From the NCBI GenBank assembly GCA_947588655.1, contig CANPYS010000003.1, forward strand, positions 11,904 through 75,903: DNA of 64,000 bases, given 5' to 3'. How positions within the stretch are numbered: position 1 is the first letter of the stretch; every line of letters starts with the position of its first letter. Under the pieces are notes generated by a model. That model was given only the letters and a program-made list of their open reading frames with translations, did not search any database and was not told the origin of the DNA. The position numbers and the translations under genes are program-made. The DNA is from an uncultured Alphaproteobacteria bacterium. Lineage in GTDB: Bacteria; Pseudomonadota; Alphaproteobacteria; RF32; CAG-239. Below are positions 9,341-50,082 of the stretch, in pieces.

Positions 9341-9416
9341 TGGGGCTGTAGCTCAGTTGGGAGAGCGACAGGTTCGCAATCTGTAGGTCGTGGGTTCAAT
9401 CCCCATCAGCTCCACC
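9341..9416 (+). tRNA. tRNA-Ala (anticodon CGC)
   Basis: 76-nt cloverleaf with a 7-bp acceptor stem, a G3:U70 alanine identity pair, anticodon loop TTCGCAA, TTCAATC T-loop and an encoded CCA. The 3' 45 nt form the prophage attL core. Confidence 0.9.
9372..9416 (+). repeat. attL core (45-bp direct repeat, 3' end of tRNA-Ala)
   Basis: Exact 45-bp match to 49726-49770 (TTCGCAATCTGTAGGTCGTGGGTTCAATCCCCATCAGCTCCACCA). Confidence 0.85.
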
Positions 9417-9480
9417 ACTAGGAAAATAAAGGCTTTTACAGTTTCTGTGAGAGCCTTATTTTTGTTCTAAAAACAAAGTT

Positions 9481-9502
9481 GTCCCTAATTTGTCCCTAAT
9501 TT
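9481..9502 (+). promoter_or_regulatory. putative integrase arm-type sites (tandem GTCCCTAATTT x2)
   Basis: The same tandem 11-mer is found immediately upstream of the integrase start (49573-49594). A third, partial copy lies at 50061-50076. Confidence 0.5.
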
Positions 9503-9801
9503 TGCGATTAAAAGTAATTAAAGATAATTAAAATTTTGTTGTTCATTGATGATTTACAAATTGCTTTGTATGTCGCAAAAACGTATATATGACATGCAAC
9601 CATCTTGCTAATGTCGTCAAAAGGTTTTGCAATATTGATACCAGTTTAAAATAAAACCAATGACACAAAATAAACTTGATTATTCAACACATTAGATTGA
9701 TTCTTAAGGACTCGGCGGTTTGTGATGACATAAAAATAACGTTTTGCGTGGCGGCAAAACGTTATTAAGGGCTGGTGTCTAACTAGGTTTTTATACATCA
9801 A

Positions 9802-33632: not shown

Positions 33633-36600
33633 TGGCTTGGGAAATTGAAAATACGGTTGCAACGGATAACGAAGAAAACAAAAATATCCAACCGCAATGG
33701 GAAATTGAAGACGTGCAACCTATAACGCAATCCGTTATGGATGCCGAAACTAAGCAAATGTATAATGTGCCTCTCGGAATGGACGGAACAGACGCTAAAT
33801 TTGCGATTGATACGCAACACGGTGGCAAGGATAAAGGCTCGTTTTTGGGCAAGGTTTGGACTGGAATTGATACTCTTGGATCGCATATTGAAAGAGGATT
33901 CCAAGACTTTGACCGCGCCGTTGTTGAGCATGCGGGGCAATTAGTGGATTCGCTTGTTTTAGATAAAGGCTTAAGATACCAAAAGCGTCTAAAGTTGGTT
34001 GAAGATTGGGAAAATGGCGATTGGAGCTATTTTGGCAATCGCGAGCTTACCGATGAAGAAAAACAAGGTGTTATTAGCCGCCAAAAGGAACAAATTGCCT
34101 ATATTCAAAACTTGCGCGAGCGGACACAAAAGTTTTTCAATAAAGGCGCTCAAATTATGCGCCCTGATGAAAAGATGAATAATGTTGATAAATTTCTTGT
34201 TGCGGCAAGTAGTGGCGTTATTAGCCTTGGTGAAGCGGCGGCTGTGTTTATGGCAACGAAAAACCCCGTACTAGCGGCTGCGACAATAGGAACATCATTC
34301 GCCTCTTTAAAAGATACTGAATATTTTGATAAAGCTATTGCCGCCGGCGAAAGCGCAAATGACGCGAGTACTGACGCGACCGTTGCCGGTGCAATAGAGG
34401 GCGGGCTTGAATTTGTTGGCGATAGGCTTTTGTTTGGCATTGCTAAGTTTAAACCTATTCAAGAGCTAGGAAACAAGGTTATTCAATCGTCTATTACCAA
34501 AACATTACAAAGCAAAATCGGGCGTTCGGCTCTCGGAAAGATTGCCTCAAGACACCCTCAAAGCATATTTGGCGCGGCTGTTAAGGGCGGCTTTACAGAG
34601 GGCGGCGAGGAATTTATGCAAGAGGGCGCTGGTATGCTTTGGGAAAATTATACTGGTGTTTCTAGTTATGGCATGGATGAAATTTTAAGCCAAAGTTTAT
34701 TTGCCTTTGCGGCAGGCTCTATTCCGGGCGCTGGTATGGGCGGTATAGGAACAAGTATATATAATCAGAAGATTACAAAAGATAACAATTCTATTAAGAA
34801 TATCTTGAAAGAAAACACACCTGAATTAACCGATGAAGAATTGCAAGTTGTTGCAGATAATGTGCAAGAGGCTTTGTTGCAACAAGGTGCGGCGTATGAT
34901 GATCAAATTACAAATTTATTGCGCAAGGAATCGGAAATTGATGTTATGCCGGACGGTTTAACCGCTGAAAGCCTTACTGCCGACACGCGTAATATGCTCA
35001 AAGAAAAATATGGCATGAGCGATGAGGATATTAACAAAACCATTGACATTGCCGCCAATTATATTGACGCGCGCAATGGCTTTAACGAAACGTATAACGA
35101 ATATTTTGATAAAATGGACACCGCTGGTTATGATCGGAGCGTGGCGGATAATGCCGCACGCGTTTTGGCGGCTCGCGCTGTTGCTATTGCAAGGGCGGAG
35201 GGTGTTAGCACAGAAGAAGTGCGCAAGCGTTGGAATTTGAACCTGACACGGCAAACCTACGAGGATTTTAAAAACGGCGTGCCGGTTGCGGATAATTATG
35301 CACAACGCCAACAGCAAATAAACGATATTATGGGCGTTGTGCCTGATAATTGGACGGATGAACAGAAAAAGGCGTTGCGTAAAGGTATTGCCGCCCGCGC
35401 ACGCTACGGCGATCTTGACGCGGCTAATTTTAACGCCGAAACGGCTAAACAATGGTTTGAAAGCAAGGGAGCTGACGAATCCATTAAAGACATCAATAAA
35501 CGCGTTCAAACCATTATGGGCGTTTTGAATTTTAAGGAAGAATTGGAAACAGTTAAAAAATCAAAGCGCATCAATCCGCAAGATATTAATCCGTTTGAGG
35601 CGTTGGTTAATGATAAACTATACAATAAGATTGCCAAAATTGATAAGGAAAACAGGGGCGACAGCCTGATTACGTTTATTGTTAAGCGCGGTGGCTTAAA
35701 AGACGTTGGTGGCGAGTTGAAAGCAAAGGACGCTCAAAAGCAACGTGTTGGGCTTATCAACAACAAAAGCGGGAACGATTTTGACGATATGGCTTTGATT
35801 GCTTGGGAACACGGGTATTTTCCGGCGAAGACAGAAAGACCAACCATACAAGATTTGCTTGATGCGATTGATGATGAGCTTTTTGGGAAAAAGCGCTACC
35901 AATATCAAGATGGCATCAGTCAATCAATGACCGAATATGTTGACAGCCTTGCTGAACAAATGGATATGCTCGGTGTGGATTATGCCGGTATGAGCGCCGA
36001 GGAGGCAGAGGCGGCTTATTATAAAGCGGCAGAAGAATATAAGAAAAACGCGCGGCAATATGAATCTGATTATGGCGATAATGGCGTAAATTTTGATGAT
36101 GATCTTCCGCTGTTTCAAGAATCGGCAGAACTTGCTGATAAAATAAGCAAAATTGACGCTGAACGGCTTGCTTTTGAGCGAAAGGATATTAACCCCGAAC
36201 TCAAAGGTAGGGAAAACGAAAAAGTTAAAGCGGTTAAAATTAACCGCTTTTTTTCTGATCGTGCGGAAAGCAAAGATATAAGCCTTGATGATATTATCGC
36301 GGCGATTGATACTAAAGTTAATAAAAATGCTAAAGGTACCCGCATTTTAAAAAATAGTCATACTGGCGAAGTTGTTACCTTGTCAGGGCGGGCGATTGGT
36401 AAAATGTTTAATACAACAAGAGATAGACTTGATAATCAAAATATTGGTGGCGTTCTCGGTAAGGAATGTATTGCTAATATTGCTGATATTTTTGACAGTG
36501 CCATGCTTATTAAAACCACAAATGACGAAAGACACGATACAAACAATAAAATTCTGCGTTACGCAAATGCTGTTGAATCCGATTGCGAAAATTTTATTGT

Positions 36601-39600
36601 TAAAATAACCGTAAAAGAAATGGCTAATAACCGCAAAGAGCTTACGGATATTGAAATTGAAAACAACAATGGCAGAGATTTAGCCGCCTATGATTTGAAA
36701 GTTGGCAGAAAAAATACCGTTGAGGGTAATTCCTCTACAGATAAATCCGTAGCCAGCCTCAACGGTAATGCTATTATTATAAACGATTTAATAGAGTTTG
36801 TCAATACCTATACGACAAAAACTATAAACATTAATGGAAAAGAACGCATGACAACCAATAGCGAAGGCAACCGCATTGCTAAAACCGAAGAGGGCTTGCG
36901 CGCTTTTTATGAATGGTTTGGGGATAGCAAGGTGGTTGATGATCAGGGTAGACCGTCGGTTGTTTATCACGGAACAAGAGCAAAGTTTTCAACTTTTGAC
37001 AAGGGAAAGAAGGGCGAAGCATCATCAGTATCAAGGGTTGGTTTTTGGTTTTCCCCATCAGAGGAGTTTGGAAGAAATTTTGCGGAAGATGCGTGGTATG
37101 GCGAAGAAGATGTTATTGTTATGCCGGTTTATCTTAATCTGAAAAATCCAAAAATTTATAAACCAGGACAAGCAACAGAAACAGAGCAAAAAAAGGCTAG
37201 GAAAGCATTTGACAAGGCACAAAATAAATTAGAAGAAGCAGTTAAAGAAGAAAAAAGAATATTAGAAAAAGAGGGACTTTATGCATCGTGGAAATACAAA
37301 GATAAGGTTAATATTGATAAAATAAGAGAAGATTTCGAATATGCACTATCAGAGCTACACGCAACGCAAAAAAAAGATTCGTACGAAAAATTTAAAATGG
37401 ATATATATCGTGTAGGCGGACAAAAACCAACTGATGCAACAGTCGGTGGGCTTGGTATGGCTCTTGACGATTATAATGCACCTGAAAAATATGCAGATAT
37501 GCTAAAAGAGCAAGGATATGACGGAATTATTATTGAAGATACAGAATATGACGCTGGAAATATAACAAACGCTGAAACTAACACTCAATATGTAATTTTT
37601 GAAAGCAATCAGGCAAAATCCACAGAAAACATAGGAACATATAGCAGGACAAATAATAATATCTATTATCAGTCAGCATTTGCGGCTTCACGCGTTGACT
37701 ATGAAGCACCGAGCCTTGAAGCAATAGGTACAGGAACAGACGCACAGACGCACGGTTATGGACTTTATTACGCTCTTAATAGAAACATTGCAGAAAATTA
37801 TAGAGAGGGCTTTATTCAAGATGAGTATAATGAAGAAGTCCGAGAAAAAATAAAAGAATTAGGAAAAGAAGAAGCTATAAAATACTTTAAACAAAAAGCA
37901 GAAGAAGCAAAAATAAATAAATCTTTGTATAAAGGGGATATTCAATATCAAATAAAAGAACAGGAAGAAAAAAAATATAATATTATGTCCGATATGGCAA
38001 AAACAGGTGCAGAGGGGCAAATTCACGAGGTTGACATACCCGAAAATCCGTACTTGCTTGACGAACAGCTACCATTTGAAGAACAATCTGATTATGTAAA
38101 AGAAAGGCTTGAAAGAATAAATAAAGAAAGTGAAGCAAAAGGCTTTTTAGATACTTTGCGCTCTTATGACAGAACAATAGACGGCTATGATATTTATTAT
38201 AAAATATCACAATACGTTAATGGCGATAAAGAAGCTTCCGCTTTGCTTGAAAGGTACGGTATTAAAGGAATAACATATTTTGGAAAAAAGGACGGCAAGT
38301 GCTTTGTTATCTTCAATCCGGCAGACATTAGAGTTATCCAAAAATTTTATCAAGAAACTCTTGGAAATAATACACCTCCGCGCGGTGCGTTTGTTGAGCG
38401 CGGTGATGAAAACATTATTTATGCTTTTGAGGGGGCTGACGCTTCAACAGTTATTCATGAACTTGGACACTTCTTTTTGCGCGATATGCAAAAATTTTCC
38501 GATAATGAAAAGACGGCTGAACAGTTAGCTGAAGTTTATAAATATCTTGGGGCTGAAAACGGCGAGCTGACACGCGAACAAGAAGAAAAATTTGCTGATA
38601 CCTTTGAAGTCTATTTGCTTGATGGACGCGCGCCTAATCAGGTATTAAGAGGCGTGTTTGCTCGTTTCAAAAAATGGATCAGTAGCCTATGGTATGAGGT
38701 TAAGCGTCTTAAAGGTATTAACCTCACAAATGAAGTGCGCACAACCTTTGATGATATGCTTGGCGGTAAAGGGCTTGATTTTGCTATGCGAGCAAGCACG
38801 CTTAAAATGGGGCAAATGCTTGAACGCGGCAATATATCGCAATGGCAAATAAACCGCGCTATGCAAATGCTTTATGATGGCAAAATGAGTAAGGCAGACT
38901 TGCAAAACCTTATTCAAAAGCTCCGCAACGGTATGAAAAATAAAGAGTTTGTTGAGGCGCTTAAAGAATTTGAAAATAAACCTGCAAAAGGCAACAAAGA
39001 ATTGCTTACCGAATGGGATTACACTGTTTTGCGTAACCAGTTAGACGGGTTGAACTTTAATCGTGACAATGTCAAGACGCGTATTGAAAAATTGCTTAAA
39101 TGGAGCGAGCCGCGTACTAGTGGCGGCAAGCTCGTTGGGCGTTTTCCGAACAAACAGCTTAATGATGCTTTTGCTCGCTATCGTGAATTGGTAACAATGA
39201 ATAAAGACGAGGCAAGGCAAAAACTGCAAGAGAACGTTGAACTCATTGAAGATCAAATGAGGTCTGGTGGCGATGTTGATATTGAACAGCTGATTTTTGA
39301 AAATCGCTTGCTTTCTTATAACCTCAACAAGATTAGCAATAGTGAATTGCTAAAATTATATGACGGCTTAGCTGAAAGCTATAATATAGGGCGTTTGACT
39401 GATAAAATTACTGGCGATGCCAAGCGTGAGCGCAAAAAACAAATGATTGAGCGAGCAAAGGCAGTCTTAACCAACTACGGCGCAATCAATCCGAACGTTG
39501 AAAGATCTGAAATCAAGAAAAGGTTAGCGCGCTTTGGTTTAAGTCAACAAAGTTGGGGTGGCTTGCTTGACACACTTTCAATGAATGACACACGTTCGCA

Positions 39601-41515
39601 AACCGGAAAAAGCGCCTTAAGCCAAGATTTGGATATGTTTGACGCTGAACAAAAAAAATATGCGGGCATTGCCGCTGATAGCGATAGTATAAGCGAAAAG
39701 CTTGAAAAGGCTTTAAGCGGCACAAAGAACAACGCGCAAAGCGTGACACATTACATCAATACGGAGCTTGATAAAAAGGTTGTTATTGAATGGAGTGGCT
39801 TAACCAACCCCAAAGAACGGAATCCAAAATACCAAAAATGGCAACAATTCAAGCGTACATTTACAAAAGATCAGCTCATTGATATTTATATGAAGTCTTT
39901 AGATGATGATACGCGCAATATTATGATTAATGATCCGGTTAATCAATACAACGAGGCTTTTTTGAGGCAGGTAAAAGACGAATTGACCACCGATGATTTG
40001 GCGGTTGCTGATGCTATTTTTGCCTTTTACAACGAAAACTATACGCGGTTTAACGCGTTCTATGAAGAGCATTTTGGCATGAGCTTGCCTAAGTCAAAAT
40101 ATTATACACCGCGTGCAATGAGCGTTGACGGCGTAAGTATTGACGACAAAACCACTCACGGCTATGCTAGCTTTAGCGGTGCAAAAAAACGTGTGGCGGT
40201 GGCTGGTACTGGCGTGATCAATATTCAAGGCGCGTTTAGAGCATTAAACAAATATATCAACCAACAAAACCATTATATGGGCTATATGGATAAGCTAACG
40301 GATATTAACGCCGTGCTAGCGAACAAAGAAATTAAAAACACCATTAACTCTTTGTTCGGCGCTGAAATGAACAAACGTATACAATACGAGATCAACAATC
40401 TCGCAAACAATGGAAACGATAAAGTTGACTCTTGGGGCAAGTTTTGGAATAAATTGCGTGCAAATTATGCAAAATCTGTGCTTGCGGCTAAACCTAGCTT
40501 GACAATAAAACAGCTTACCTCTTTTCCTGCATATTGGGAAAATATGGAAACGATAGATTTTGTTACTGGTGTTGCTGACTTTTTTGCACACCCTAAAGAG
40601 GCAATACAAATATTAGGTAGCACAACCTTAATGAAAACACGCGGAACGGATATTATCCGAGATTTTGACCAAATAAGCAAAAGCGATTTGTTCTCAAAAA
40701 TGAAAAAAGCCAAAGGCAAAATAAAATGGAATGATTTGCTCATGTTTAATATTAAATTCGGCGATAGGGGCGCAATTTATATGGGCGGTTGGGCGTTATA
40801 TAAAGCGGAGCTTAATAAAAACCTAAAAGCCGGCATGAGTGAGCAAGAGGCAAAGGCGCAAGCGTTGGCTACGTTTGAGCGTGTGACTGATGAAACGCAA
40901 CAATCGGGGCGGTTAAGCCAACAAAGCTTTATGCAAAGCAATTCCGCTCTACGTGCGTTTACAATGTTTACAAGCTCTCAAAACCAGTATTTGCGCAAGG
41001 AAATTAACGCAATTCGTGGCTTGGTAACCGGCAGAATGAGTAAGACAAAGGCGGCTAAAACTATATTTATTTATCACGTTTTGTTGCCCGTGTTCTTCCA
41101 AGTCGTAAGCGATGGCTTTAGATGGGATAAAGATAATGACATACGCGCCGCCGTTCTTGGTTCGCTTAATGGTTGGTTTATCTTGAATAAGGTTCTTGAA
41201 AATGTTTATAATTGGCTTACAGACAATGGCAATATGTTCAAAACCCGCATGTCTGTCCGTGATTTAGTGCCGTTTTGGGGTTCAGTTGAGGATTTGAAAA
41301 ACGATGTGCTTAAATTTGCCGATGACGAAATGGAGCTTGAAGATATGCTTGATGTCATTAAACCGCTTGGCGAAGTAACCGGTTTACCGCTAAAATATGC
41401 CAAAGACGTTATTGAAAACGCTGGCGAATATGCAGATGATGGGGAATATTTTAAGGAGGGCTTGTTATGGCTTGGTTGGAGTCCATATTCTTTAAGAGAT
41501 TTGGGCGACGAGTGA
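33632..41515 (+). CDS. giant polyvalent internal-virion (ejection) protein, 2627 aa
   Basis: A single uninterrupted ORF. It contains an HExxH zincin motif (VIHELGHFF, nt about 38455-38469) and an H-G-T/aromatic/E region (VVYHGTRAKFSTFD...GFWFS...IIIEDTEYD, nt about 36950-37560) that resembles H-Y-E ADP-ribosyltransferases. Gly-rich hydrophobic segments lie near the N-terminus. No Walker A or SLT motif is present. Confidence 0.7.
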   Translation: MAWEIENTVATDNEENKNIQPQWEIEDVQPITQSVMDAETKQMYNVPLGMDGTDAKFAIDTQHGGKDKGSFLGKVWTGIDTLGSHIERGFQDFDRAVVEHAGQLVDSLVLDKGLRYQKRLKLVEDWENGDWSYFGNRELTDEEKQGVISRQKEQIAYIQNLRERTQKFFNKGAQIMRPDEKMNNVDKFLVAASSGVISLGEAAAVFMATKNPVLAAATIGTSFASLKDTEYFDKAIAAGESANDASTDATVAGAIEGGLEFVGDRLLFGIAKFKPIQELGNKVIQSSITKTLQSKIGRSALGKIASRHPQSIFGAAVKGGFTEGGEEFMQEGAGMLWENYTGVSSYGMDEILSQSLFAFAAGSIPGAGMGGIGTSIYNQKITKDNNSIKNILKENTPELTDEELQVVADNVQEALLQQGAAYDDQITNLLRKESEIDVMPDGLTAESLTADTRNMLKEKYGMSDEDINKTIDIAANYIDARNGFNETYNEYFDKMDTAGYDRSVADNAARVLAARAVAIARAEGVSTEEVRKRWNLNLTRQTYEDFKNGVPVADNYAQRQQQINDIMGVVPDNWTDEQKKALRKGIAARARYGDLDAANFNAETAKQWFESKGADESIKDINKRVQTIMGVLNFKEELETVKKSKRINPQDINPFEALVNDKLYNKIAKIDKENRGDSLITFIVKRGGLKDVGGELKAKDAQKQRVGLINNKSGNDFDDMALIAWEHGYFPAKTERPTIQDLLDAIDDELFGKKRYQYQDGISQSMTEYVDSLAEQMDMLGVDYAGMSAEEAEAAYYKAAEEYKKNARQYESDYGDNGVNFDDDLPLFQESAELADKISKIDAERLAFERKDINPELKGRENEKVKAVKINRFFSDRAESKDISLDDIIAAIDTKVNKNAKGTRILKNSHTGEVVTLSGRAIGKMFNTTRDRLDNQNIGGVLGKECIANIADIFDSAMLIKTTNDERHDTNNKILRYANAVESDCENFIVKITVKEMANNRKELTDIEIENNNGRDLAAYDLKVGRKNTVEGNSSTDKSVASLNGNAIIINDLIEFVNTYTTKTININGKERMTTNSEGNRIAKTEEGLRAFYEWFGDSKVVDDQGRPSVVYHGTRAKFSTFDKGKKGEASSVSRVGFWFSPSEEFGRNFAEDAWYGEEDVIVMPVYLNLKNPKIYKPGQATETEQKKARKAFDKAQNKLEEAVKEEKRILEKEGLYASWKYKDKVNIDKIREDFEYALSELHATQKKDSYEKFKMDIYRVGGQKPTDATVGGLGMALDDYNAPEKYADMLKEQGYDGIIIEDTEYDAGNITNAETNTQYVIFESNQAKSTENIGTYSRTNNNIYYQSAFAASRVDYEAPSLEAIGTGTDAQTHGYGLYYALNRNIAENYREGFIQDEYNEEVREKIKELGKEEAIKYFKQKAEEAKINKSLYKGDIQYQIKEQEEKKYNIMSDMAKTGAEGQIHEVDIPENPYLLDEQLPFEEQSDYVKERLERINKESEAKGFLDTLRSYDRTIDGYDIYYKISQYVNGDKEASALLERYGIKGITYFGKKDGKCFVIFNPADIRVIQKFYQETLGNNTPPRGAFVERGDENIIYAFEGADASTVIHELGHFFLRDMQKFSDNEKTAEQLAEVYKYLGAENGELTREQEEKFADTFEVYLLDGRAPNQVLRGVFARFKKWISSLWYEVKRLKGINLTNEVRTTFDDMLGGKGLDFAMRASTLKMGQMLERGNISQWQINRAMQMLYDGKMSKADLQNLIQKLRNGMKNKEFVEALKEFENKPAKGNKELLTEWDYTVLRNQLDGLNFNRDNVKTRIEKLLKWSEPRTSGGKLVGRFPNKQLNDAFARYRELVTMNKDEARQKLQENVELIEDQMRSGGDVDIEQLIFENRLLSYNLNKISNSELLKLYDGLAESYNIGRLTDKITGDAKRERKKQMIERAKAVLTNYGAINPNVERSEIKKRLARFGLSQQSWGGLLDTLSMNDTRSQTGKSALSQDLDMFDAEQKKYAGIAADSDSISEKLEKALSGTKNNAQSVTHYINTELDKKVVIEWSGLTNPKERNPKYQKWQQFKRTFTKDQLIDIYMKSLDDDTRNIMINDPVNQYNEAFLRQVKDELTTDDLAVADAIFAFYNENYTRFNAFYEEHFGMSLPKSKYYTPRAMSVDGVSIDDKTTHGYASFSGAKKRVAVAGTGVINIQGAFRALNKYINQQNHYMGYMDKLTDINAVLANKEIKNTINSLFGAEMNKRIQYEINNLANNGNDKVDSWGKFWNKLRANYAKSVLAAKPSLTIKQLTSFPAYWENMETIDFVTGVADFFAHPKEAIQILGSTTLMKTRGTDIIRDFDQISKSDLFSKMKKAKGKIKWNDLLMFNIKFGDRGAIYMGGWALYKAELNKNLKAGMSEQEAKAQALATFERVTDETQQSGRLSQQSFMQSNSALRAFTMFTSSQNQYLRKEINAIRGLVTGRMSKTKAAKTIFIYHVLLPVFFQVVSDGFRWDKDNDIRAAVLGSLNGWFILNKVLENVYNWLTDNGNMFKTRMSVRDLVPFWGSVEDLKNDVLKFADDEMELEDMLDVIKPLGEVTGLPLKYAKDVIENAGEYADDGEYFKEGLLWLGWSPYSLRDLGDE

Positions 41516-41605
41516 AAAATAAAACAAAGTTTTTATTGACATTGTATTCCTGATGTAATACAATGTATGTATAAACGATGTAAAAATAATTTTAAGGAGG
41601 AAGAT

Positions 41606-41881
41606 ATGCTATCCGTTATTCAAACTAGGATTGATGCAGAAAGTCGCAAGCGCGCCGAAGATATTGTCGGGCGAATGGGTATGAATTTATCTGATGCGAT
41701 TAGAATATTCATTTATCAAGTCATTAACGAAAGAGCCTTACCTTTTAAGCCATGCGTTGGAGAAGATCCTACTGAAGAGCTTAAAAAAGATCTTATTGAA
41801 GTAGAGGATGACTTGAAAAATGATCGTTTAGCGTCTTTTAATGATGTTGGCGCGCTTATGTCCTATCTCAATAAGGAGTAG
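41606..41881 (+). CDS. dinJ: DinJ/RelB-family antitoxin
   Basis: 91 aa. RIDAESRKRAEDIVGRMGMNLSDAIRIFIYQVINERALPFKP matches the DinJ N-terminal ribbon-helix-helix. RBS AAGGAGGAAG. Confidence 0.8.
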   Translation: MLSVIQTRIDAESRKRAEDIVGRMGMNLSDAIRIFIYQVINERALPFKPCVGEDPTEELKKDLIEVEDDLKNDRLASFNDVGALMSYLNKE

Positions 41882-41885
41882 TATA

Positions 41886-42158
41886 ATGTATGTACTAAAA
41901 CTTTCTAAGCGATTTAGGAGGGATTATAGACTGTGTGTTCGGCGCGGACTTGACGCTAAAAAGCTTGAAATCGTGTTAAACCTTTTGGCGGCCGGAAGTG
42001 AGTTGCCACCGCAATATAAGGATCATCCGCTAAAAAATGAGTTAAAGGGTTATCGCGATTTACATATTGATCCCGATTGGCTCTTAATATATAAATATTG
42101 CGACGATTCGATCATACTTCTATTTGCAACAGGTACTCATTCGGATCTGTTTAAATAG
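41886..42158 (+). CDS. yafQ: YafQ-family (RelE-fold) mRNA interferase toxin
   Basis: 90 aa. YKDHPLKNELKGYRDLHIDPDWLLIYKY...LLFATGTHSDLF matches YafQ. RBS AAGGAG lies 5 bp after the dinJ stop. Confidence 0.8.
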   Translation: MYVLKLSKRFRRDYRLCVRRGLDAKKLEIVLNLLAAGSELPPQYKDHPLKNELKGYRDLHIDPDWLLIYKYCDDSIILLFATGTHSDLFK

Positions 42159-42262: not shown

Positions 42263-44956
42263 ATGGACTGCTTTATTTTTAAGAAAGGTAAAACCATGAC
42301 AATTACTGCAAGTATGCCCGCCAAGGCTGTCTATCTAGGCGATGGCGTTACTGTTAATTTTCCAGTTCCGTTTATTTATTTTGAAAATTTGGACGGAACA
42401 AAACAAATTAAAGTCGTTCTCGCTGATGAAAATGGCGAAAACGAGGTTGTACAGGAAGAGAATATAAATTTTACCATTACAGCGTCTGGTCAAATTAACG
42501 GTACGCTGACAATGAACACACCTCCTCCTGCTAATTATATTTTGACAATTCTATATGATATACCGATTGAACAGCTGACGGACTGGAAAGAGTTCGGTAG
42601 ATTGCCTAGCGAGAGTATTGAAAAGGCTGTTGATAAATTGACGGCTATTATTAAACAAATTTATGAAGTATTAGATCGGTGTGTTAAGGTTACAATCAGT
42701 GGCAAGCAAACGCCTGAAGAGCTTCTTGCGACTGTTTATGATAAATTGGACAGCGCAACAGAGGTTGCAAAACAGGCTTCAAGCGCCGCCGAAAAAGCAA
42801 CCGCCGCCGCGGATAACGCGACAAATGCGGCGGCTAATGCCGTGCAAGCGGCGGAAACGGCTGTGCAAGATATTGAAAACGCTGTTGCCGGCGCTAAAGA
42901 CGATATTGCCGAAACCCTCCAACAGTCTGAGGCAAGCATTCAAGAAACGATTGCGTCGGCTATTGAGGATGTTAAAGGCGCGGCGACTGCCGCCGCACAA
43001 GAAATTGTGGATAATGCCGCCGAAAGCGCCACGGAAACGGCAAAAAGCAACCTTAATGCGTATGTTGATGAAACGGTTGAGCCGTCCTTGCAGAAATACG
43101 TTGATGCCGCCGTCGCTTCCGCCGAGGAGGCTCATAGTTACGAAAGCTTGGCAGAACAGAAGATTGAGGAGTTTAAGACATTATACGAAACTTCAACGTC
43201 TGAATTTGAAACGCTATACAGCACTTCAACATCTGAATTTGATACAAACGCGCAGGCTCAAACATCTGATTTTAACGCCAATGCCGCAGAGAAGCAAGCG
43301 GCGGTTGATAAATCAGCCGAGGCGGCGGCAAATAGCGCCACAGCCGCTGAAAAATCCAAACAGGACGCGGCGGCGAAAGCAGATGCCGCTGCGACATCAG
43401 AAACAAACGCAAAAAAAAGCGAACTGCTAGCCGCCGCGCTTGCAGAACGCGTGAGAAGTGAGGGAATTCCAATGAGCATTATTGAACACAAAAGAATTGA
43501 GAAGTCGGGGAACACCGTTAAATTGTACTGGCAAGATCCGCGCAACACGATTATTGACGGATATACACTTGCGAGTTGGAAGTCAACGACAATCGTTAAG
43601 AAACAAGGGACATACCCCGAAGACGTTGACGATGGCGAGATTGTAGCCATTGTAACAGAACGTAATAGATATTTAGACACGCCGCTTGAAGACACACAAG
43701 AGGATGCCGCAAATTGGTATTATCGGGCGTTTCCGTTGTCTGTTAATGGTGTGTATTGCCTTGACAAGCGCAACTGCTTTGGCGTTGTGTTATATGGTTA
43801 CCGCATTAACGAGATTGATCAAGTGCCGTCTACGCGCGTGGAATATTTGCCGTATTGCGATAATTATTTCTATGATCCGTGTTCTATGGATCATATTGCT
43901 GATACGTTCAGTTGGGGAAGTTGGGAAAGGGCTTTCTTCGTTCCAAAGCCGTGCGCTTTGAAATACAACGGCGAAGTTGATTATTATCTTGATGTGCATG
44001 ATTTTACTAAAAAGGCAGACGGTAGTGCTTCGGATGTGAGTAGCTTTGACTATGGCGGAAACTTCATGTGTGAATTTCCCAAGATTTTCGTTAAGTTTTG
44101 GCGCGAAAACAACTATATTTATGTCCTTGTATCAAATACAAAGCTTGATGATGGCTTTGAGTGTTACGCATGCAAGAAATCCGACGGAAGCTATGCTGAA
44201 CATTTTTATTTGCCAATGTTTGAGGGTACAAAAGATACCGATAACCGTCTACGTTCAATCGCCACAAATACAGTGCCAACGGCTTCAACGAACGCCGAAA
44301 CCGAAGCAACCTATGCAATGGCAAACGGTACGGGTTGGAACACTACATTGTGGGCAGATGAAATGTTGATGATCTTATTATTCCCGCTGTTATTCAAGTC
44401 CACAGATAGCCAAGTTGCGTTGGGTTATGGCGCAAGCGGCTCATCTAGTGGCTTAACGTGTAGAAACGATGCGGCGTTGGCAAAAGGCATGATGTATGGC
44501 ACGGCAAGCGGCAATGCCGCCGGCATGACGTATCTCGGATTGCATAACTGGTGGGCGCACCGGTGGCGCCGATGCAACGGCTTAATGAATAATAAAGGAA
44601 CGATTTACGTTAAAATGACACCGTCAACGATTGACGGCAGTTCTACGGACGGTTTTAACCGCACTGGCGAGGGATATATCAACACAGGGCATTTGATGCC
44701 CGCTTGCGAAAACTCGTACTACAGGCGTTATTTACCGGTCGGAAAATATGGCTTAATGCCGCAGACTGTTTCAGGCAGTAGCACGACGTATTATTGCGAT
44801 GCCGGTTGGGCGAACAACGGTCAACTTGATCAGCTTCTCCTGGGCGGCTCTGTTAATAACGGCACGTCCGGTGGGGTGTTTTGCTTTCACGTTAACGGCG
44901 CACCTTCGATCACGAATTGGAGCTTCGGCGCTTCGCCCTCTTATCATCCCCTTTAA
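42263..44956 (+). CDS. tail fiber protein with C-terminal C-type-lectin-fold DGR variable region
   Basis: 897 aa. The middle is an Ala-rich coiled-coil. The C-terminus GWANNGQLDQLLLGGSVNNGTSGGVFCFHVNGAPSITNWSFGASP is CLec/FGE-like. An alternative start at 42296 (MTITAS) has a better RBS. Confidence 0.75.
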   Translation: MDCFIFKKGKTMTITASMPAKAVYLGDGVTVNFPVPFIYFENLDGTKQIKVVLADENGENEVVQEENINFTITASGQINGTLTMNTPPPANYILTILYDIPIEQLTDWKEFGRLPSESIEKAVDKLTAIIKQIYEVLDRCVKVTISGKQTPEELLATVYDKLDSATEVAKQASSAAEKATAAADNATNAAANAVQAAETAVQDIENAVAGAKDDIAETLQQSEASIQETIASAIEDVKGAATAAAQEIVDNAAESATETAKSNLNAYVDETVEPSLQKYVDAAVASAEEAHSYESLAEQKIEEFKTLYETSTSEFETLYSTSTSEFDTNAQAQTSDFNANAAEKQAAVDKSAEAAANSATAAEKSKQDAAAKADAAATSETNAKKSELLAAALAERVRSEGIPMSIIEHKRIEKSGNTVKLYWQDPRNTIIDGYTLASWKSTTIVKKQGTYPEDVDDGEIVAIVTERNRYLDTPLEDTQEDAANWYYRAFPLSVNGVYCLDKRNCFGVVLYGYRINEIDQVPSTRVEYLPYCDNYFYDPCSMDHIADTFSWGSWERAFFVPKPCALKYNGEVDYYLDVHDFTKKADGSASDVSSFDYGGNFMCEFPKIFVKFWRENNYIYVLVSNTKLDDGFECYACKKSDGSYAEHFYLPMFEGTKDTDNRLRSIATNTVPTASTNAETEATYAMANGTGWNTTLWADEMLMILLFPLLFKSTDSQVALGYGASGSSSGLTCRNDAALAKGMMYGTASGNAAGMTYLGLHNWWAHRWRRCNGLMNNKGTIYVKMTPSTIDGSSTDGFNRTGEGYINTGHLMPACENSYYRRYLPVGKYGLMPQTVSGSSTTYYCDAGWANNGQLDQLLLGGSVNNGTSGGVFCFHVNGAPSITNWSFGASPSYHPL
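44833..44937 (+). repeat. DGR variable repeat (VR)
   Basis: A 105-bp match to 45107-45211 with 8 mismatches, every one at a position that is A in the downstream copy. Confidence 0.9.
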
Positions 44957-45011
44957 GGGGGTTTGCAAAGGGGGAGCAATCCCCCTTGCATTACGTTTCG
45001 GCGAAGCCGAA
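44947..45011 (+). promoter_or_regulatory. hairpin cluster 3' of VR (putative DGR target-recognition / IMH-associated structure)
   Basis: Three consecutive stem-loops: CCCCT-TTA-AGGGG, then TGCAAAGGGGGA-GCAA-TCCCCCTTGCA (GNRA loop), then TTCGGC-GAA-GCCGAA. Confidence 0.5.
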
Positions 45012-45106
45012 TCTGTATTTTTAAAAAATTAAGAACTTGTTAAAACATTGGTTTTAATTTGATTACGGGATTGAATGGGCGATTTGTCGGGCGCTGTTCC
45101 CTCGTG

Positions 45107-45211
45107 GCTTCTCCTGGGCGGCTCTGTTAATAACGGCACGTCCGGTGGGGTGTTTTGCTTTAACGTTAACAACGCACCTACGAACACGAATTGGAACAAC
45201 GGCGCTTCGCC
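45107..45211 (+). repeat. DGR template repeat (TR)
   Basis: Noncoding copy of VR. It contains in-register AAC codons (TTT AAC GTT AAC AAC ... AAC ACG AAT TGG AAC AAC). Confidence 0.9.
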
Positions 45212-45336
45212 AACCTTATAGCACAGGTAAAAAGCTCTAAAATGCCCTATCAGTTCCGCGCTAGGTATGGCGAAAATTAAGCTGTAAAAGGCACGGATTA
45301 GTAAGCGCAAGCCTAAAGTCCGTGAAGCTATAAGAG

Positions 45337-46488
45337 ATGAAGACATACAACGGATTGTTTGATAAAATTGTTGACGAAGACAATATTCAGAAAGCCATCT
45401 TAAAGGCTTCGCTCGGCAAACGAAAGAAAGCAAGCGTCCGGCGTACGCTGTGTAATATCTCTGAAATAGCGCACAAATTGAGCCAAGAGCTTAAAACTGA
45501 TACTTGGCGACCGGTTGAAGCACACCAAACAACGCAGATTAATGACGGTGTTGAGCTTAAAAAACGGTATATTGTTTGCCCGAATTTTGCGAGTGAACAA
45601 TGCGTGCATCACGCAATCATGAATATATGCGAGCCGCTGTTTCGCAAGAAGTTTTACCAGTACTCATGCGGAAGTGTCAAAGGGCATGGTGGCGATCAGG
45701 CTAAAAAGTACATTGAAAAGATATTGAAAAAATATCCGGCTAAAACAAAATATGTTGCAAAGCTTGATATTAAGAAATTCTTTGCCAATGCCAAGCCGAG
45801 TTTTATATTTCATGAAGTCAGGCGCACTATTCGCGATCGGCGGGTACTTAGGCTGTTTGCGTTGATTTTGCGCGCAAATAAACAAATTGTAGATGGCAAG
45901 GTAATAAAAGGCGGCATTCCAATTGGGTTTTATACTAGTCCGATATTTGCCAATATCTTACTCAATCCCCTTGATCACTACATTAAAGAAGTACTTGGCA
46001 TTGAATATTATGTGCGGTACATGGACGATATAATAATGTTTAGCCCGAATCGCCGCAAGCTCAAACGTGCTTGCCTATCAATCAGGGAATGGTTAGAGAC
46101 TCGCAAGCTTCAGCTCAAACCGATATGGCAGGTTCACCGGATGACAAGTGTTAATTTTATTGGGTATCAATTTAAGAAGAGTGGTCTTATTCGTATTCGC
46201 GATAGGATATTCTTAAAATCCGTTCGCTGTGTGCGCCGTGTGGCGCGCAAAAAGGCGGAAAGGCGTATGACAATACATGATTGTCTGCGCATCTTAAGCT
46301 ATATGGGGCGTTTCAAGAACGCCCAAACATATAGCGCATTTCGGCGGTATATTTCCCCGCTGATTAATATACGCGAAATGCGCAAGCGTGTTTCGCGGCA
46401 CTTCAAAAAACTGGCAAAAACGCAAAAAGAAAGGATGGGTAACAAATATGATATGGCGACATGCAGAGGGCAACCAGCGACCGCGTGA
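45337..46488 (+). CDS. DGR reverse transcriptase
   Basis: 383 aa with RT motifs IPIGFYTSPIFANILLNPLD and YVRYMDDIIMF (YxDD). The N-terminal LFDKIVDEDNIQKAILKASLGKRKK is typical of DGR RTs. Confidence 0.9.
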   Translation: MKTYNGLFDKIVDEDNIQKAILKASLGKRKKASVRRTLCNISEIAHKLSQELKTDTWRPVEAHQTTQINDGVELKKRYIVCPNFASEQCVHHAIMNICEPLFRKKFYQYSCGSVKGHGGDQAKKYIEKILKKYPAKTKYVAKLDIKKFFANAKPSFIFHEVRRTIRDRRVLRLFALILRANKQIVDGKVIKGGIPIGFYTSPIFANILLNPLDHYIKEVLGIEYYVRYMDDIIMFSPNRRKLKRACLSIREWLETRKLQLKPIWQVHRMTSVNFIGYQFKKSGLIRIRDRIFLKSVRCVRRVARKKAERRMTIHDCLRILSYMGRFKNAQTYSAFRRYISPLINIREMRKRVSRHFKKLAKTQKERMGNKYDMATCRGQPATA

Positions 46489-46516
46489 TGTGGAAGCTAT
46501 TGCCGGCGGACGTTAT

Positions 46517-46714
46517 ATGATCCGCCAAAACATCAAAAAAGAAAGCCGCACCGATGCAAACGGGGCGGCTTTTGAATTATGGACGTACGATGAAGCAGTG
46601 GCTTCAACTGCCGAATATGCGGCATATTATGCCGTTCAAACGGCTGAACTAAAGCGCGAAGCTGAAATCGTTGACGATTATACATTAAAATTAATTGAGG
46701 AGGGAACGTTATGA
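46517..46714 (+). CDS. hypothetical small protein
   Basis: 65 aa from an internal Met of the listed ORF. Its stop overlaps the next start (ATGA). Confidence 0.3.
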   Translation: MIRQNIKKESRTDANGAAFELWTYDEAVASTAEYAAYYAVQTAELKREAEIVDDYTLKLIEEGTL

Positions 46715-46854
46715 GAGCGATTGTTGAAAGCCTTAAACGGCTATATGAAGCGGGGCGATTAACGCGGGCGCAGTTGTTGGAACGTGTTGACAAGGGAACA
46801 ATAACCGTTGCCGAGCATGAACAAATTGTTGGCGAAGAGGAGCAAGGGGCATAA
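46711..46854 (+). CDS. XkdX-family small phage protein
   Basis: 47 aa (MRAIVESLKRLYEAGRLTRAQLLERVDKGTITVAEHEQIVGEE). It is not in the ORF track, which lists only ORFs of 60 aa or more. A GGGGC/GCCCC terminator hairpin follows. Confidence 0.5.
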   Translation: MRAIVESLKRLYEAGRLTRAQLLERVDKGTITVAEHEQIVGEEEQGA

Positions 46855-46893
46855 AGCCCCTTGTTCTTTATTATTTATAAAGGGGAAGAAGCG

Positions 46894-47331
46894 ATGAACA
46901 ATCAAAATGATATTGAAACGCTTGCGCGCACTCTGTATGGTGAGGCACGCGGCGAAAGCAGACAGGGCAAGATAGCTGTTGCTTGCGTTGTCTTAAACCG
47001 TGTCCGGCGGCACAAAATGTGCGGTTGGCGAGATATTGGCGGTTATAAGGTCGCAACCGTTGCGGCAACATGCCTTAAACCTTTTCAATTCAGCTGTTGG
47101 AATAAAAATGATCCAAATCGGAAGAAGATTATCAATGTGACAATGGATGATAAAAAGTTTGCTGAGTGTTATGAGATTGCGCAAGGGGTTTGCGATGGCT
47201 CTATTGAGGATGTTGTCCAAGGTGCTACACATTATTATAACCCAAAGGCTTGCGCGCAACCAAATTGGGCAAAAGGCAAGACACCGTGCGCGCACATTGG
47301 CAACCACCTATTTTTTAATAATATTGATTAA
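46894..47331 (+). CDS. endolysin, SleB/CwlJ-type cell-wall hydrolase
   Basis: 145 aa. LARTLYGEARGE and VACVVLNRV are SleB (Hydrolase_2) signatures. RBS AAGGGGAAG. Confidence 0.8.
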   Translation: MNNQNDIETLARTLYGEARGESRQGKIAVACVVLNRVRRHKMCGWRDIGGYKVATVAATCLKPFQFSCWNKNDPNRKKIINVTMDDKKFAECYEIAQGVCDGSIEDVVQGATHYYNPKACAQPNWAKGKTPCAHIGNHLFFNNID

Positions 47332-47342
47332 GGGGGTGCGCA

Positions 47343-47678
47343 ATGATTAAAACAATCAAGGATTTGATTATTGAGTTCGGTTTGGTAGGATTTGCTTTCG
47401 GCATTTTATCAATTTTCTGGACAAAGGAGCAGTTGTCGCCAAAAGATAGGATGAAAAAGGTGTTTGCTTCGATCACGTTAAGCCTGATTATCGGCAGTAT
47501 CTGCATGGGCGTTGGCGTCAACGAATACCTTACATTTGCAATCATCGGCGGCGGTTGTAGCTTTGCCCGTGAATTTTTTGACGTTGTCGGCGGAATATTA
47601 AAGATCTTGGGCGAACGTCCGATAGAAACGGTTAAGCATATTGTCAACATCATTCGGGGGAAAAGCGATGAAATTTAA
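47343..47678 (+). CDS. holin
   Basis: 111 aa with 3 predicted TM helices and a charged C-terminus. Located just after the endolysin. Confidence 0.55.
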   Translation: MIKTIKDLIIEFGLVGFAFGILSIFWTKEQLSPKDRMKKVFASITLSLIIGSICMGVGVNEYLTFAIIGGGCSFAREFFDVVGGILKILGERPIETVKHIVNIIRGKSDEI

Positions 47679-47931
47679 GCTAATTCGTGGGCTTGGTAAT
47701 ATCGTCCTTATGGCGCTTGCGGCGGCGGCATTATGGCTTTGGGGCGGACACCAAGTAGAAAAACGCGCCTTTGCAGAGTGTGAAGCGCAATATCACAAGC
47801 AACTTGTTGAAATTGAAAGGTCTTATAAAAAGGAGTTGAAAAATGTTGAGAAACAAAGAGAAGTTATTCATAGCAAGCCTAATGCTACTCGCGACAGCTT
47901 GCTCCACGCCATGCACAAAGGTCTATTATAA
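47668..47931 (+). CDS. i-spanin (Rz-like)
   Basis: 87 aa with an N-terminal TM helix and a coiled-coil. Its start overlaps the holin stop. Confidence 0.5.
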   Translation: MKFKLIRGLGNIVLMALAAAALWLWGGHQVEKRAFAECEAQYHKQLVEIERSYKKELKNVEKQREVIHSKPNATRDSLLHAMHKGLL

Positions 47932-48091
47932 TTATTGTCCAATTTATCCGGTTGCAGGGAAAAATGTTGCTCTAGAGCTTGAAAAAGTGAGTTATGAGGA
48001 ATATCCGGCGACTTGGGAATGGATCGGGCGCATTGATAAATTAAGGCAAGAACTTGAATTATGTAGGAGTAGAGAAAATGATGTTGAATAA
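47843..48091 (+). CDS. o-spanin (Rz1-like lipoprotein), overlapping the i-spanin 3' end
   Basis: 82 aa with a signal peptide followed by Cys (LLATAC|ST) and a Cys/Pro-rich mature region. It lies in a +1 frame overlapping the i-spanin. Confidence 0.5.
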   Translation: MLRNKEKLFIASLMLLATACSTPCTKVYYNYCPIYPVAGKNVALELEKVSYEEYPATWEWIGRIDKLRQELELCRSRENDVE

Positions 48092-48335
48092 TTTTAAAAT
48101 TGACGAGGACGCTCGTTTTGCAAACATTGTTTTGGCAGATTCAGAGCGTCAACCTTGTGAAATATGGACTCGCGTCATGGGGTATTTTCGCCCTGTTTCC
48201 GAATTTAATAAGGGGAAAAAGTCGGAATTTAAAAAACGCAAATGTTTTACGGAGGCAAAAGCGCTTGTGGGAATGGAAAATATTAAGATTCAAGCCTCGC
48301 TTGATGATGGTTGTTCTTGCGTCGCGGCAGAATGA
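48078..48335 (+). CDS. small protein with NrdD-like glycyl-radical C-terminal motif
   Basis: 85 aa. TRVMGYFRPVSEFNKGKKSEFKKR aligns with the class III RNR C-terminus (RVCGYLG...FNAGKQEEVKRR). Four Cys are available for a Zn ribbon. Confidence 0.35.
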   Translation: MMLNNFKIDEDARFANIVLADSERQPCEIWTRVMGYFRPVSEFNKGKKSEFKKRKCFTEAKALVGMENIKIQASLDDGCSCVAAE

Positions 48336-49564
48336 TTGTCTAGGGCGGCAATGGCGGCGGTAAATTTTTGCGGTGCAAGATGGGCATAGCGCATTGTCAT
48401 ATCTAGCGTTTTATGTCCCATGAGCTCCTTGACCGTGTATAAATCAACCCCCGCCATGACAAGCCAACTTGCGTATGTATGGCGCAAAGTGTGAAACACA
48501 GCTTTTTGCTGTCTGTCTGTTATCCCCTGATTAAATAGCTCATCTACAATTTCTTGATAACGATCAGATATTTCATGTAATGCGCCTCCGTTTATATCTT
48601 GAAAAATAAGACTTTCGCCTGTGATATTTAGCGATTCCACCCGTTTTTTTAACATAGTATGTATAATTTGCGGCATAGGAATATTGCGTGCGTTATGATT
48701 TTTAGATTTGCGAATCGTTAAGAATCCTGTATCAAAATTTATATCGTTTGCTTTTAATTCGTATAATTCGCCGGCTCTACAACCGCAATAAAGGGAAACA
48801 AGTGCCATTTCATAAACTTGCGATGTTTGGTTATCTTTGTAATATTGATATGTAAACGCTCTCTTGTCTTTTGGTTGTATTTTTTTTAAGCGCTCAAGCA
48901 ATATTTCCGCCTCAGCATGTGTAAAAAACCGCAATCTCTGATTTTCCAGTGGTAATAGTTTAATGTGTTGCGTTGGATTTTCCTTTGCTTTTTTCCATAA
49001 TATGGCTGTTTTGAAAATATGCCGGCAAAGTTTAATAACATGATTAATGGTTGCGGCGGCATATTTTTGCTCTTGGGATGTGCTTTTACCTTTTAGCATA
49101 GATTGTTTTATTTTTTCTATATCTTCAACTGTGATGGCTTTGAGCGGCTTTTCGCCTATATATTTCTTAATATGATTGTTGAAGTATTGTCTTTCGCATT
49201 TTATCCCTTTAGGTGTTTTTGTTCCATGTTGGGCGTTTTCATACAGATCATAAAAAGCGGCAAGGGTTATGCTCTCATTTTCATTTTCTTGCGCGGCTTT
49301 TCTTATAGACGCGTTTTTTTCTTTAAGCGATGTGTAACCCGAACCTTTTTTAATGTTCTCCCGAATCGTTTCCACTTCTGCCGCCGCCTTTGCCTCTGTA
49401 TAGCCCTCAGATTCCCAACCGAACCCCTCATCTCTTTGCTTTCCGTTTATTGTGTAACGCAGAATAAAATATCTGTCAAAACGAATGCCATTTTTACGCG
49501 TTGGGTGTGAGCGATAATAAACGCCTTTATATCTTGTTTTTTGTTTTGTGCTTTTCTCAACCAT
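48290..49564 (-). CDS. int: tyrosine integrase
   Basis: 424 aa. The C-terminal catalytic region HTLRHTYASWLVMAGVDLYTVKELMGHKTLDMTMRYAHL carries the R-H-R-Y residues. Arm-type repeats precede the start, and attR lies 160 bp away. Confidence 0.9.
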   Translation of the reverse strand: MVEKSTKQKTRYKGVYYRSHPTRKNGIRFDRYFILRYTINGKQRDEGFGWESEGYTEAKAAAEVETIRENIKKGSGYTSLKEKNASIRKAAQENENESITLAAFYDLYENAQHGTKTPKGIKCERQYFNNHIKKYIGEKPLKAITVEDIEKIKQSMLKGKSTSQEQKYAAATINHVIKLCRHIFKTAILWKKAKENPTQHIKLLPLENQRLRFFTHAEAEILLERLKKIQPKDKRAFTYQYYKDNQTSQVYEMALVSLYCGCRAGELYELKANDINFDTGFLTIRKSKNHNARNIPMPQIIHTMLKKRVESLNITGESLIFQDINGGALHEISDRYQEIVDELFNQGITDRQQKAVFHTLRHTYASWLVMAGVDLYTVKELMGHKTLDMTMRYAHLAPQKFTAAIAALDNHSAATQEQPSSSEA

Positions 49565-49725
49565 ATAAAGTTGTCCCTAATTTGTCCCTAATTTTTACAT
49601 TAAATGCTATTAAGGGAAATTAATGATAATTAAAAGAATGATAGAGCAAAAAGCGCTTGAAGTCAAGGGTTTTGTACTTACGAATTAATGCTAATTAAAA
49701 TCATTTAAAGTCACATTAAATCAGA

Positions 49726-49770
49726 TTCGCAATCTGTAGGTCGTGGGTTCAATCCCCATCAGCTCCACCA
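49726..49770 (+). repeat. attR core (45-bp copy of tRNA-Ala 3' end)
   Basis: Identical to 9372-9416. Three further upstream nt also match, with one mismatch at the junction. Confidence 0.85.
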
Positions 49771-49981: not shown

Positions 49982-50082
49982 CCCATCAGCTCCACCACTA
50001 GAAAAATAAAGGCTTTCACGGTTTTTGTGAGAGCCTTATTTTTGTTCTAAAAACAAAGTTGTCCCTAATTTGTCCCACTTTT
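49982..50082 (+). repeat. relic att: last 16 nt of tRNA-Ala plus about 85 bp of tRNA-downstream flank
   Basis: CCCATCAGCTCCACCACTAGAAAAATAAAGGCTTTCACGG...AAAGTTGTCCCTAATTTGTCCC is a near-identical copy of 9401-9501, with a few mismatches. Confidence 0.75.

Follow-up and report, generated by a model that had tools for sequence, protein, structure and literature searches.

In this work, we describe a diversity-generating retroelement (DGR) found in a stretch of 64,000 nucleotides, hereafter the window, of an uncultured alphaproteobacterium (GenBank assembly GCA_947588655.1, contig CANPYS010000003.1). The element is, with high probability, a functional, recently active and minimal DGR, free of accessory genes, which diversifies the tip of the tail fibre of a prophage of about 40 kb. 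The DGR is genuine, but it is an ordinary case of a system already known, belonging to the minimal type that lacks the Avd helper. Its parts are a variable repeat (VR) at the end of the tail-fibre gene, a template repeat (TR), a structured spacer RNA and a reverse transcriptase (RT) gene, reported in Table 1 along with other features of the window.

The two repeats extend over 105 nt at an offset of 274 and are 92% identical. Both a base-by-base recount and an independent repeat finder return 8 mismatches: at all of them the TR base is an A, the VR bases being C, G, G, T, T, G, T and T. Given 22 adenines in 105 nt of TR, the chance of finding all 8 mismatches on an A is about 1e-6. All of them fall on codon positions 1 or 2 of the open reading frame (ORF) 42263-44956, where the VR lies in frame within the last 41 codons, 19 nt separating its end from the stop codon. 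The TR, which contains the codons TTT AAC GTT AAC AAC GCA CCT ACG AAC ACG AAT TGG AAC AAC, translates in the VR frame as NVNNAPTNTNWNN. Because its adenines are found only in AAY, ACG and GCA codons, a stop-free diversity of up to 2.5e12 proteins is available: 2.46e12 variants were computed to be reachable from the TR, none with a stop codon. An earlier note on this DNA, made by a reader of the sequence alone, had described the same repeats, with the same coordinates, adenine-only mismatches and VR bases, the AAC codons, a non-coding TR and an RT with a YVRYMDD motif starting 125 nt after it; the recount, the repeat finder and a check of the ORFs agree with it on all these points, the restriction to adenines holding at 8 out of 8 positions. 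No ORF is contained in the 169-nt gap between VR and TR. Two candidates for hidden genes in this region, the antisense ORF 45029-45433 and the ORF 44799-45032, were rejected, no family match being found at E<=1.

Natural VR alleles were found in other strains of the same phage, which exact-protein look-ups located in at least 10 other samples. Two contigs, L088 and L090 (L numbers denote the loci and contigs compared), run from within the VR through the TR into the RT. L088, 98.8% identical to the window over 3.5 kb (44859-48360), features 15 VR differences in 79 nt: 13 are opposite a TR adenine, 2 mirror changes in its own TR (44864 with 45138 A>T, 44905 with 45179 T>C) and none is of another kind (P = 1e-10; these P values are hypergeometric). 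L090, 97.6% identical to the window, features 13 differences, 11 opposite a TR adenine, 1 mirroring the TR and 1 other (P = 2.6e-7). Taken together, 24 out of 28 differences are opposite TR adenines, 3 mirror the TR and 1 is unexplained; VR heterogeneity at TR-adenine positions, to be looked for according to the earlier note, is indeed present between strains. The encoded alleles are HVNGAPSITNWSF in the window, IVYYAPTFSHWHI in L088 and SVIDAPSNLIWAH in L090. They are not chimeras of VR and TR generated during assembly, because L088 and L090 contain bases found in neither the TR nor the VR of the window. The TR agrees among L088-L091 at every shared position, divergence 3' of the VR is about 0.8%, and eight more contigs match the target gene outside the VR at 99-100% identity (in one case, 1 mismatch in 5,531 nt).

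The alleles bear on the possibility that the DGR is a fossil, its VR/TR differences being relics of a diversification which has ended. Static sequence alone cannot show present activity, and the lack of a detected TR promoter would fit such a fossil. However, strains diverged by only 1-2% differ at 13-15 VR sites and have TR substitutions copied into the VR, which places homing after the split of the strains. The RT has an uninterrupted ORF, conserved at 98-100%, the spacer RNA and the hairpin 3' of the VR are intact as well, and the two copies of a sister element, described below, differ in the VR and nowhere else over 15 kb. A fossil is, on these grounds, highly improbable.

Other searches were negative: for VR alleles, an unbiased pattern of two anchors separated by 39 unspecified positions (anchor-N39-anchor) gave 0 matches in JGI metagenomes and IMG/VR, and megablast of the whole DGR cassette against GenBank phages gave no match. 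A look-up of the YafQ toxin encoded by the prophage returned 8 contigs of the phage, none of which extends to the VR. One apparent allele with a VR identical to the TR, in L001, was discarded as an assembler jump from VR into TR, with deletion of 274 nt. Breaks or collapses at the VR/TR repeat are systematic in the assemblies of this phage from metagenomes (L001; L088-L091; L094-L101).

The same VR-TR-RT layout, with adenine-only mismatches, is shared by about 50 related loci; in a scripted comparison of 87 related loci, mismatches between TR and VR were restricted to adenines in almost every locus containing the region. In a sister element with an RT of 75% identity, two copies of a 42,130-bp unit on a single contig were compared over 15,131 nt: they show 11 differences, every one in the VR and 10 of them opposite a TR adenine. 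Similarly, 20 VR differences separate the Phascolarctobacterium pair L015/L016, 17 at TR adenines and 3 mirroring changes in the TR. On the L009/L011 contig, JAFUSH010000052.1 (80,052 bp), the 42,130-bp phage unit of the sister element is present in about 1.9 copies, differing only in the VR; the repetition reflects either a tandem prophage or an assembly of the concatemer style, held apart by VR heterogeneity. The closest relatives of the DGR are found in metagenome-assembled genomes (MAGs) of Alphaproteobacteria from roe-deer rumen and human gut, while remoter members of the clade come from Negativicutes, Melainabacteria, Clostridia, Verrucomicrobia and Bacteroidota. In the distant RT relatives L061 and L063-L087 (at most 35% identity) the TR is located downstream of the RT; the subset examined features an ORF with an HRDC domain upstream of the RT, and L063, L081 and L082 also a bAvd ORF. 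DGR architecture thus tracks RT relatedness.

The RT contains, besides YVRYMDD, the motif IPIGFYTSPIFANILL, and its start lies 125 nt 3' of the TR. It matches Pfam RVT_1 (1.4e-21) and the phage RT family phrog_1423 (2e-80). Sequence alone places it at equal distance from group II intron RTs and PDB chain 8ub7, and its best NCBIfam and PDB matches include group II intron RTs (TIGR04416, 3e-29; GsI-IIC RT, 2e-17). Such sequence-only matches are what could speak for a group II intron, a retron or a defence RT located by a repeat, the variation of the VR being then due to recombination or to ordinary diversifying selection. The NCBIfam scores are, however, below the respective cut-offs (102 bits against 300 for TIGR04416, 54 against 235 for retron St85), and none of the defence-RT families reaches its own. 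The structural nearest neighbour is bRT, the RT of the Bordetella BPP-1 DGR, by a margin of 9 Z units, and not a group II intron or retron RT, from the clades which the earlier note had named as speaking against a DGR. Rfam shows only RT-18, discussed below, and no group II intron or retron RNA in the window. Neither selection nor recombination can explain the tracking of TR adenines (P 1e-10) or its recurrence in about 50 relatives, and a nature other than that of a DGR is effectively refuted. Residues R77 and I196 align with R74 and I181 of bRT, shown to promote adenine mutagenesis, and are invariant, or nearly so, in 36 homologues. Motif 4 reads IGFYTSP: the near-invariant (I/V/L)G part is kept, and SP replaces SQ throughout the clade.

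The target protein has no Pfam or NCBIfam match, and matches PHROG tail and tail-fibre families. Its last 418 residues were modelled with a predicted local distance difference test (pLDDT) score of 92.8 and feature the C-type lectin/FGE fold, as had been proposed for the VR-encoded tip; the structures nearest to the model are the DGR variable proteins TaqVP, TvpA and Mtd. TaqVP of Thermus aquaticus (PDB 5vf4), only 15% identical in sequence, is a cellular protein, whereas the domain described here is the distal one of a phage tail fibre of 897 aa. The gene sits between that of a giant, virion-associated polyvalent protein and the XkdX-like and lysis genes. No full-length protein at least 90% identical to the target was found elsewhere in a collection of 15 billion proteins.

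A diversified phage tail fibre, a TR and a cognate RT make up the DGR recognized by the earlier note, and strain alleles, relatives and RT structure all agree with it. The note had, in addition, called the DGR complete and assigned it to the BPP-1 Mtd/bRT paradigm. This exaggerates the likeness, since the BPP-1 cassette is arranged as mtd - avd - TR - brt (Architecture B, avd - TR - RT), with an RT-10 spacer, while the present element is devoid of Avd and has RT-18 as its spacer. The cassette is complete as an accessory-free DGR, and is a member of this known class rather than a BPP-1-type cassette. Architecture A1 (target - TR - RT), which accounts for 29% of the DGRs catalogued by Wu et al. 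2018 (PMC5758913), agrees with it in gene order, lack of accessory genes, C-terminal VR in a C-type lectin, TR just upstream of the RT and association with phages. By its architecture it resembles the avd-lacking Lineage 3 of the same authors, and may be a member of it. For DGRs devoid of avd, they detected the gene nowhere else in the respective genomes, and concluded that the mechanism does not depend on Avd. Within the searchable literature, DGRs of the Avd-independent kind are reported only by Wu et al. 2018, and all engineered systems are of the bRT-Avd type.

The whole-window Pfam scan lists 25 of 70 families and could not, by itself, exclude Avd, whose absence was for this reason tested by local profile searches with positive controls. 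Among the ORFs around the cassette no match to bAvd (PF22296) or PF05635 was found at E<=1, the avd ORFs of distant loci scoring 1e-17 to 1e-20. The best E value of the local Avd hidden Markov model on the six-frame translated window is 7.9, against 1e-56 or better for the controls. Avd and HRDC profiles, run on the six-frame window and on about 50 loci of the clade, 7 kb on each side, detected nothing, the controls scoring 1e-28 to 1e-61. The core order is thus TR-RT, with neither avd nor HRDC; no dedicated profile search was made for MSL and CH1. The ORFs 3' of the RT encode a tail-associated protein of family phrog_20201 and an XkdX-like protein, followed by a cell-wall hydrolase. The first of them, an 88-aa ORF (46448-46714, + strand) overlapping the RT stop codon by 41 nt, was considered as a new DGR accessory and rejected, because of its phrog_20201 match and of the XkdX-like 47-aa ORF next to it (46711-46854, + strand), the two looking like the usual PBSX-like tail-fibre pair. 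Both products are probably tail-fibre-associated proteins, pushed away from the fibre gene by insertion of TR and RT, though they may still have a role in the DGR.

The DGR might still be incomplete on its own, if an Avd-like or other accessory protein, acting with the RT as Avd does with bRT, were encoded elsewhere in the host genome or by another element. bRT does require Avd for synthesis of complementary DNA (cDNA), and the search covered 64 kb of the host genome. However, neither the window nor the about 50 relatives of the clade, from at least 6 phyla, contain a bAvd or HRDC homologue, the control loci scoring 1e-56 to 1e-59, and the genomes surveyed by Wu et al. 2018 argue in the same direction. 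Since the element moves on phages between very different hosts, a host-encoded partner is unlikely, and we regard a dependence on accessories acting in trans as improbable.

The stretch that separates the TR from the RT contains a structured RNA of the Rfam family RT-18 (RF03021). The match, at 45259-45338, covers the full length of the model and scores 44.0 bits, against a gathering score of 41.3; our own covariance model, R1, scores 85.6 bits at 45241-45335. RT-10 was not found in the window by the Rfam search, even with permissive filters; besides RT-18, it gave a weak RT-4 match. Of 10 relatives tested, 7 have an RT-18 match above the Rfam threshold, which in each case adjoins the start of the RT. 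Three helices are supported by an alignment of 20 spacers: 87.9% of the cells pair, the slid controls giving 34-41%, and double changes are found at 14 of 15 pairs. In a larger alignment of 47 distinct sequences, fitted to the covariance model, the figures are 93.5% against 35-43%, with compensatory changes at 15 of 15 pairs. R1, which was built from the alignment of 20 spacers, matches RNA in 53 loci, in all of them on the strand of the RT and in nearly all immediately 5' of its start, a few matches lying 50-150 nt upstream. Nearly all the R1-positive loci have the TR upstream and no accessory gene found in them; conversely, R1 had no match in any of the loci with the TR downstream of the RT (L061, L063-L087). 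By analogy, the spacer RNA is presumed to be a cis element for RT binding and cDNA priming. In Weinberg et al. 2017, RT-10, of BPP-1, is the only such RNA tied to a DGR, the remaining RT motifs being treated as possible parts of retrons or DGRs; RT-18, left by them without such a role, is here the TR-RT spacer of an Avd-less, adenine-mutagenising DGR clade. The pairing of this RNA with the accessory-free architecture, found in 53 loci, is described in neither Wu et al. 2018 nor Weinberg 2017.

Downstream of the VR, three hairpins were found: one across the stop codon, the GC-rich hairpin 44965-44989 and the terminator-like hairpin 44997-45021. A boundary of the form GGCGC(N)TCGC, equivalent to the 3' end of VR and TR, is kept in relatives, and this GC-rich end of the homology may act like the initiation of mutagenic homing (IMH) site of BPP-1. 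In L009, L010, L013, L015 and L055, a hairpin with a different stem sequence is found at the position of 44965-44989: across relatives, position and GC-rich stem are kept while the sequence changes. Loops, in the window and in relatives, are GCAA, TTTC, GAAA or longer, not consistently GRNA. The target-recognition hairpin reported by Guo et al. 2011 lies 4-34 bp 3' of the VR and has a 4-nt GRNA loop, critical in BPP-1; hairpin 44965-44989 agrees with it in stem and distance, but its GCAA loop falls outside GRNA. The same hairpin was rejected as a terminator of the target gene, as it has no T-tract and is followed by a distinct terminator-like site; the latter, 44997-45021, is the probable end of the target-gene transcript.

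By analogy with better studied DGRs, diversification would proceed through transcription of an RNA spanning TR and RT-18 spacer, binding of the spacer structure by the RT and copying of the TR into cDNA, possibly self-primed from the spacer RNA. U, C and G would be copied faithfully, while the bases placed opposite the 22 adenines would be nearly random. This cDNA would then take the place of the VR, the GC-rich end of the homology setting its 3' boundary and the GC-rich hairpin helping. The varied residues would form the ligand-binding face of the C-type lectin domain at the tip of the fibre, so that the phage could change its receptor specificity and possibly switch tropism.

Various observations weigh against an active DGR of this kind. 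Avd, required for cDNA synthesis in the best-studied DGR, is missing, and no sigma-70-like promoter was detected upstream of the TR by consensus scan. The GCAA loop of hairpin 44965-44989 departs from a consensus critical in BPP-1. Two VR differences, 44913 C>T in L090 and one between L009 and L011, are not at TR adenines. VR alleles are only three, from metagenome contigs with about 2.5x coverage. RT motif 4 ends with SP instead of the SQ of the (I/V/L)GxxxSQ signature; on this point, according to Schillinger 2012, 15 of 155 DGRs have minority variants, SP among them, and still feature adenine exchanges, and the bRT mutant Q187P retains normal misincorporation and adenine mutagenesis.

The prophage carrying the DGR is delimited by two attachment (att) cores, which bracket about 40.4 kb. 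It has genes for integrase, small and large terminase, T7-type portal, capsid, tail, lysis and a RelB/YafQ pair, and appears to be intact. A polyvalent protein of 2,627 aa (33632-41515, + strand), encoded between the tail genes and the gene targeted by the DGR, features an ART-PolyVal domain (ADP-ribosyltransferase, aa 1103-1333) and LPD3; given the T7-type portal, it is probably an internal virion protein ejected by the phage. The RelB antitoxin/YafQ toxin pair (41567-42158, + strand) lies between this gene and the tail fibre, and at least 8 other samples of the phage have it too. Scanning every ORF with Pfam also gave two N6/N4 DNA methylases, an ankyrin-repeat protein, a GapR-like DNA-binding protein, a dUTPase and a ParA-like ATPase, whose genes we take to lie in the early region of the prophage (about 9.8-20 kb). 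Two other repeats are found near the att sites: one of 95 nt (95.8% identity), comprising the tRNA end and the left end of the phage, in the 9402-9503 region and at 49982-50076, and an exact one of 29 nt, containing tandem TTGTCCCTAATT, beside both sites (9475-9503 and 49567-49595). Arm sites of the integrase, the leftover of a previous integration, or both, could account for them.

As for the host, the GyrB encoded in the flank shares 88-91% identity with proteins named 'MAG: Alphaproteobacteria bacterium', which assigns it, by sequence, to an uncultured Alphaproteobacteria MAG lineage. The earlier note had suggested a possibly obligately host-associated bacterium; this finds no support, as GyrB and relatives point only to an alphaproteobacterial MAG with kin in rumen and human gut.

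Table 1. Features of the DGR and of the prophage carrying it (window coordinates)
Feature	Position	Strand	Remarks
attL, 45-bp core, 3' half of tRNA-Ala(CGC) 9342-9417	9373..9417	+	exact direct repeat with 49726-49770
DGR target gene, tail fibre/receptor-binding protein, 897 aa	42263..44956	+	C-terminal ~390 aa = C-type lectin (FGE-type) domain
Variable repeat (VR)	44833..44937	+	codes for the last ~35 residues ahead of the conserved C-terminal tail of the tail fibre
GC-rich 3' end of VR/TR homology, GGCGCTTCGCC	44927..44937	+	IMH-like boundary; VR and TR diverge beyond
GC-rich hairpin/cruciform, GCAAAGGGGGA-GCAA-TCCCCCTTGC	44965..44989	+	27 nt 3' of VR; 4-nt loop; no T-tract; folded
Terminator-like hairpin with T-run	44997..45021	+	consensus scan only
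Template repeat (TR)	45107..45211	+	non-coding; 22 adenines = 9 AAY, 3 ACG, 1 GCA codon (VR frame)
Structured spacer RNA, Rfam RT-18 (RF03021)	45241..45338	+	TR to RT start codon; Rfam, own model R1, covariation
DGR reverse transcriptase, 383 aa	45337..46488	+	YMDD catalytic motif, IGFYTSP motif 4, basic C-terminal helix
Tyrosine integrase	48290..49564	-	adjoins attR; Phage_integrase 2.3e-24
attR, second 45-bp core copy	49726..49770	+	exact direct repeat

The receptor-binding tip of this prophage is hypervariable by design, and the C-terminal sequence of the tail fibre is for this reason unsuitable for strain typing; in addition, assemblies tend to break or collapse at VR and TR. The locus, where three alleles are known, the TR is conserved and changes in the TR have been copied into the VR, is a clean natural example of an Avd-less DGR, a type for which no experimental study was found in the searchable literature. 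Pairing with this architecture gives RT-18, so far an orphan Rfam family, a concrete job as the spacer of Avd-less DGRs. Natural-allele evidence and RT-18 assignment are the modest addition made by the present analysis, the latter making the Avd-independent mechanism experimentally approachable, and the compact module of RT plus RNA is a candidate for programmable mutagenesis without Avd.

Tentatively, and as a possibility which falls somewhat short of probable, RT-18 RNA and the longer RT, with its extra basic C-terminal helix, may form a self-sufficient two-component DGR, in which the RNA replaces the scaffolding and priming provided by the Avd pentamer, in a phage lineage widespread in gut and rumen. 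If this were true, the two-component module, about 1.4 kb from TR to RT stop, would be the smallest autonomous module for targeted hypermutation, and would represent a mechanistically distinct, still uncharacterised mode of mutagenic retrohoming.

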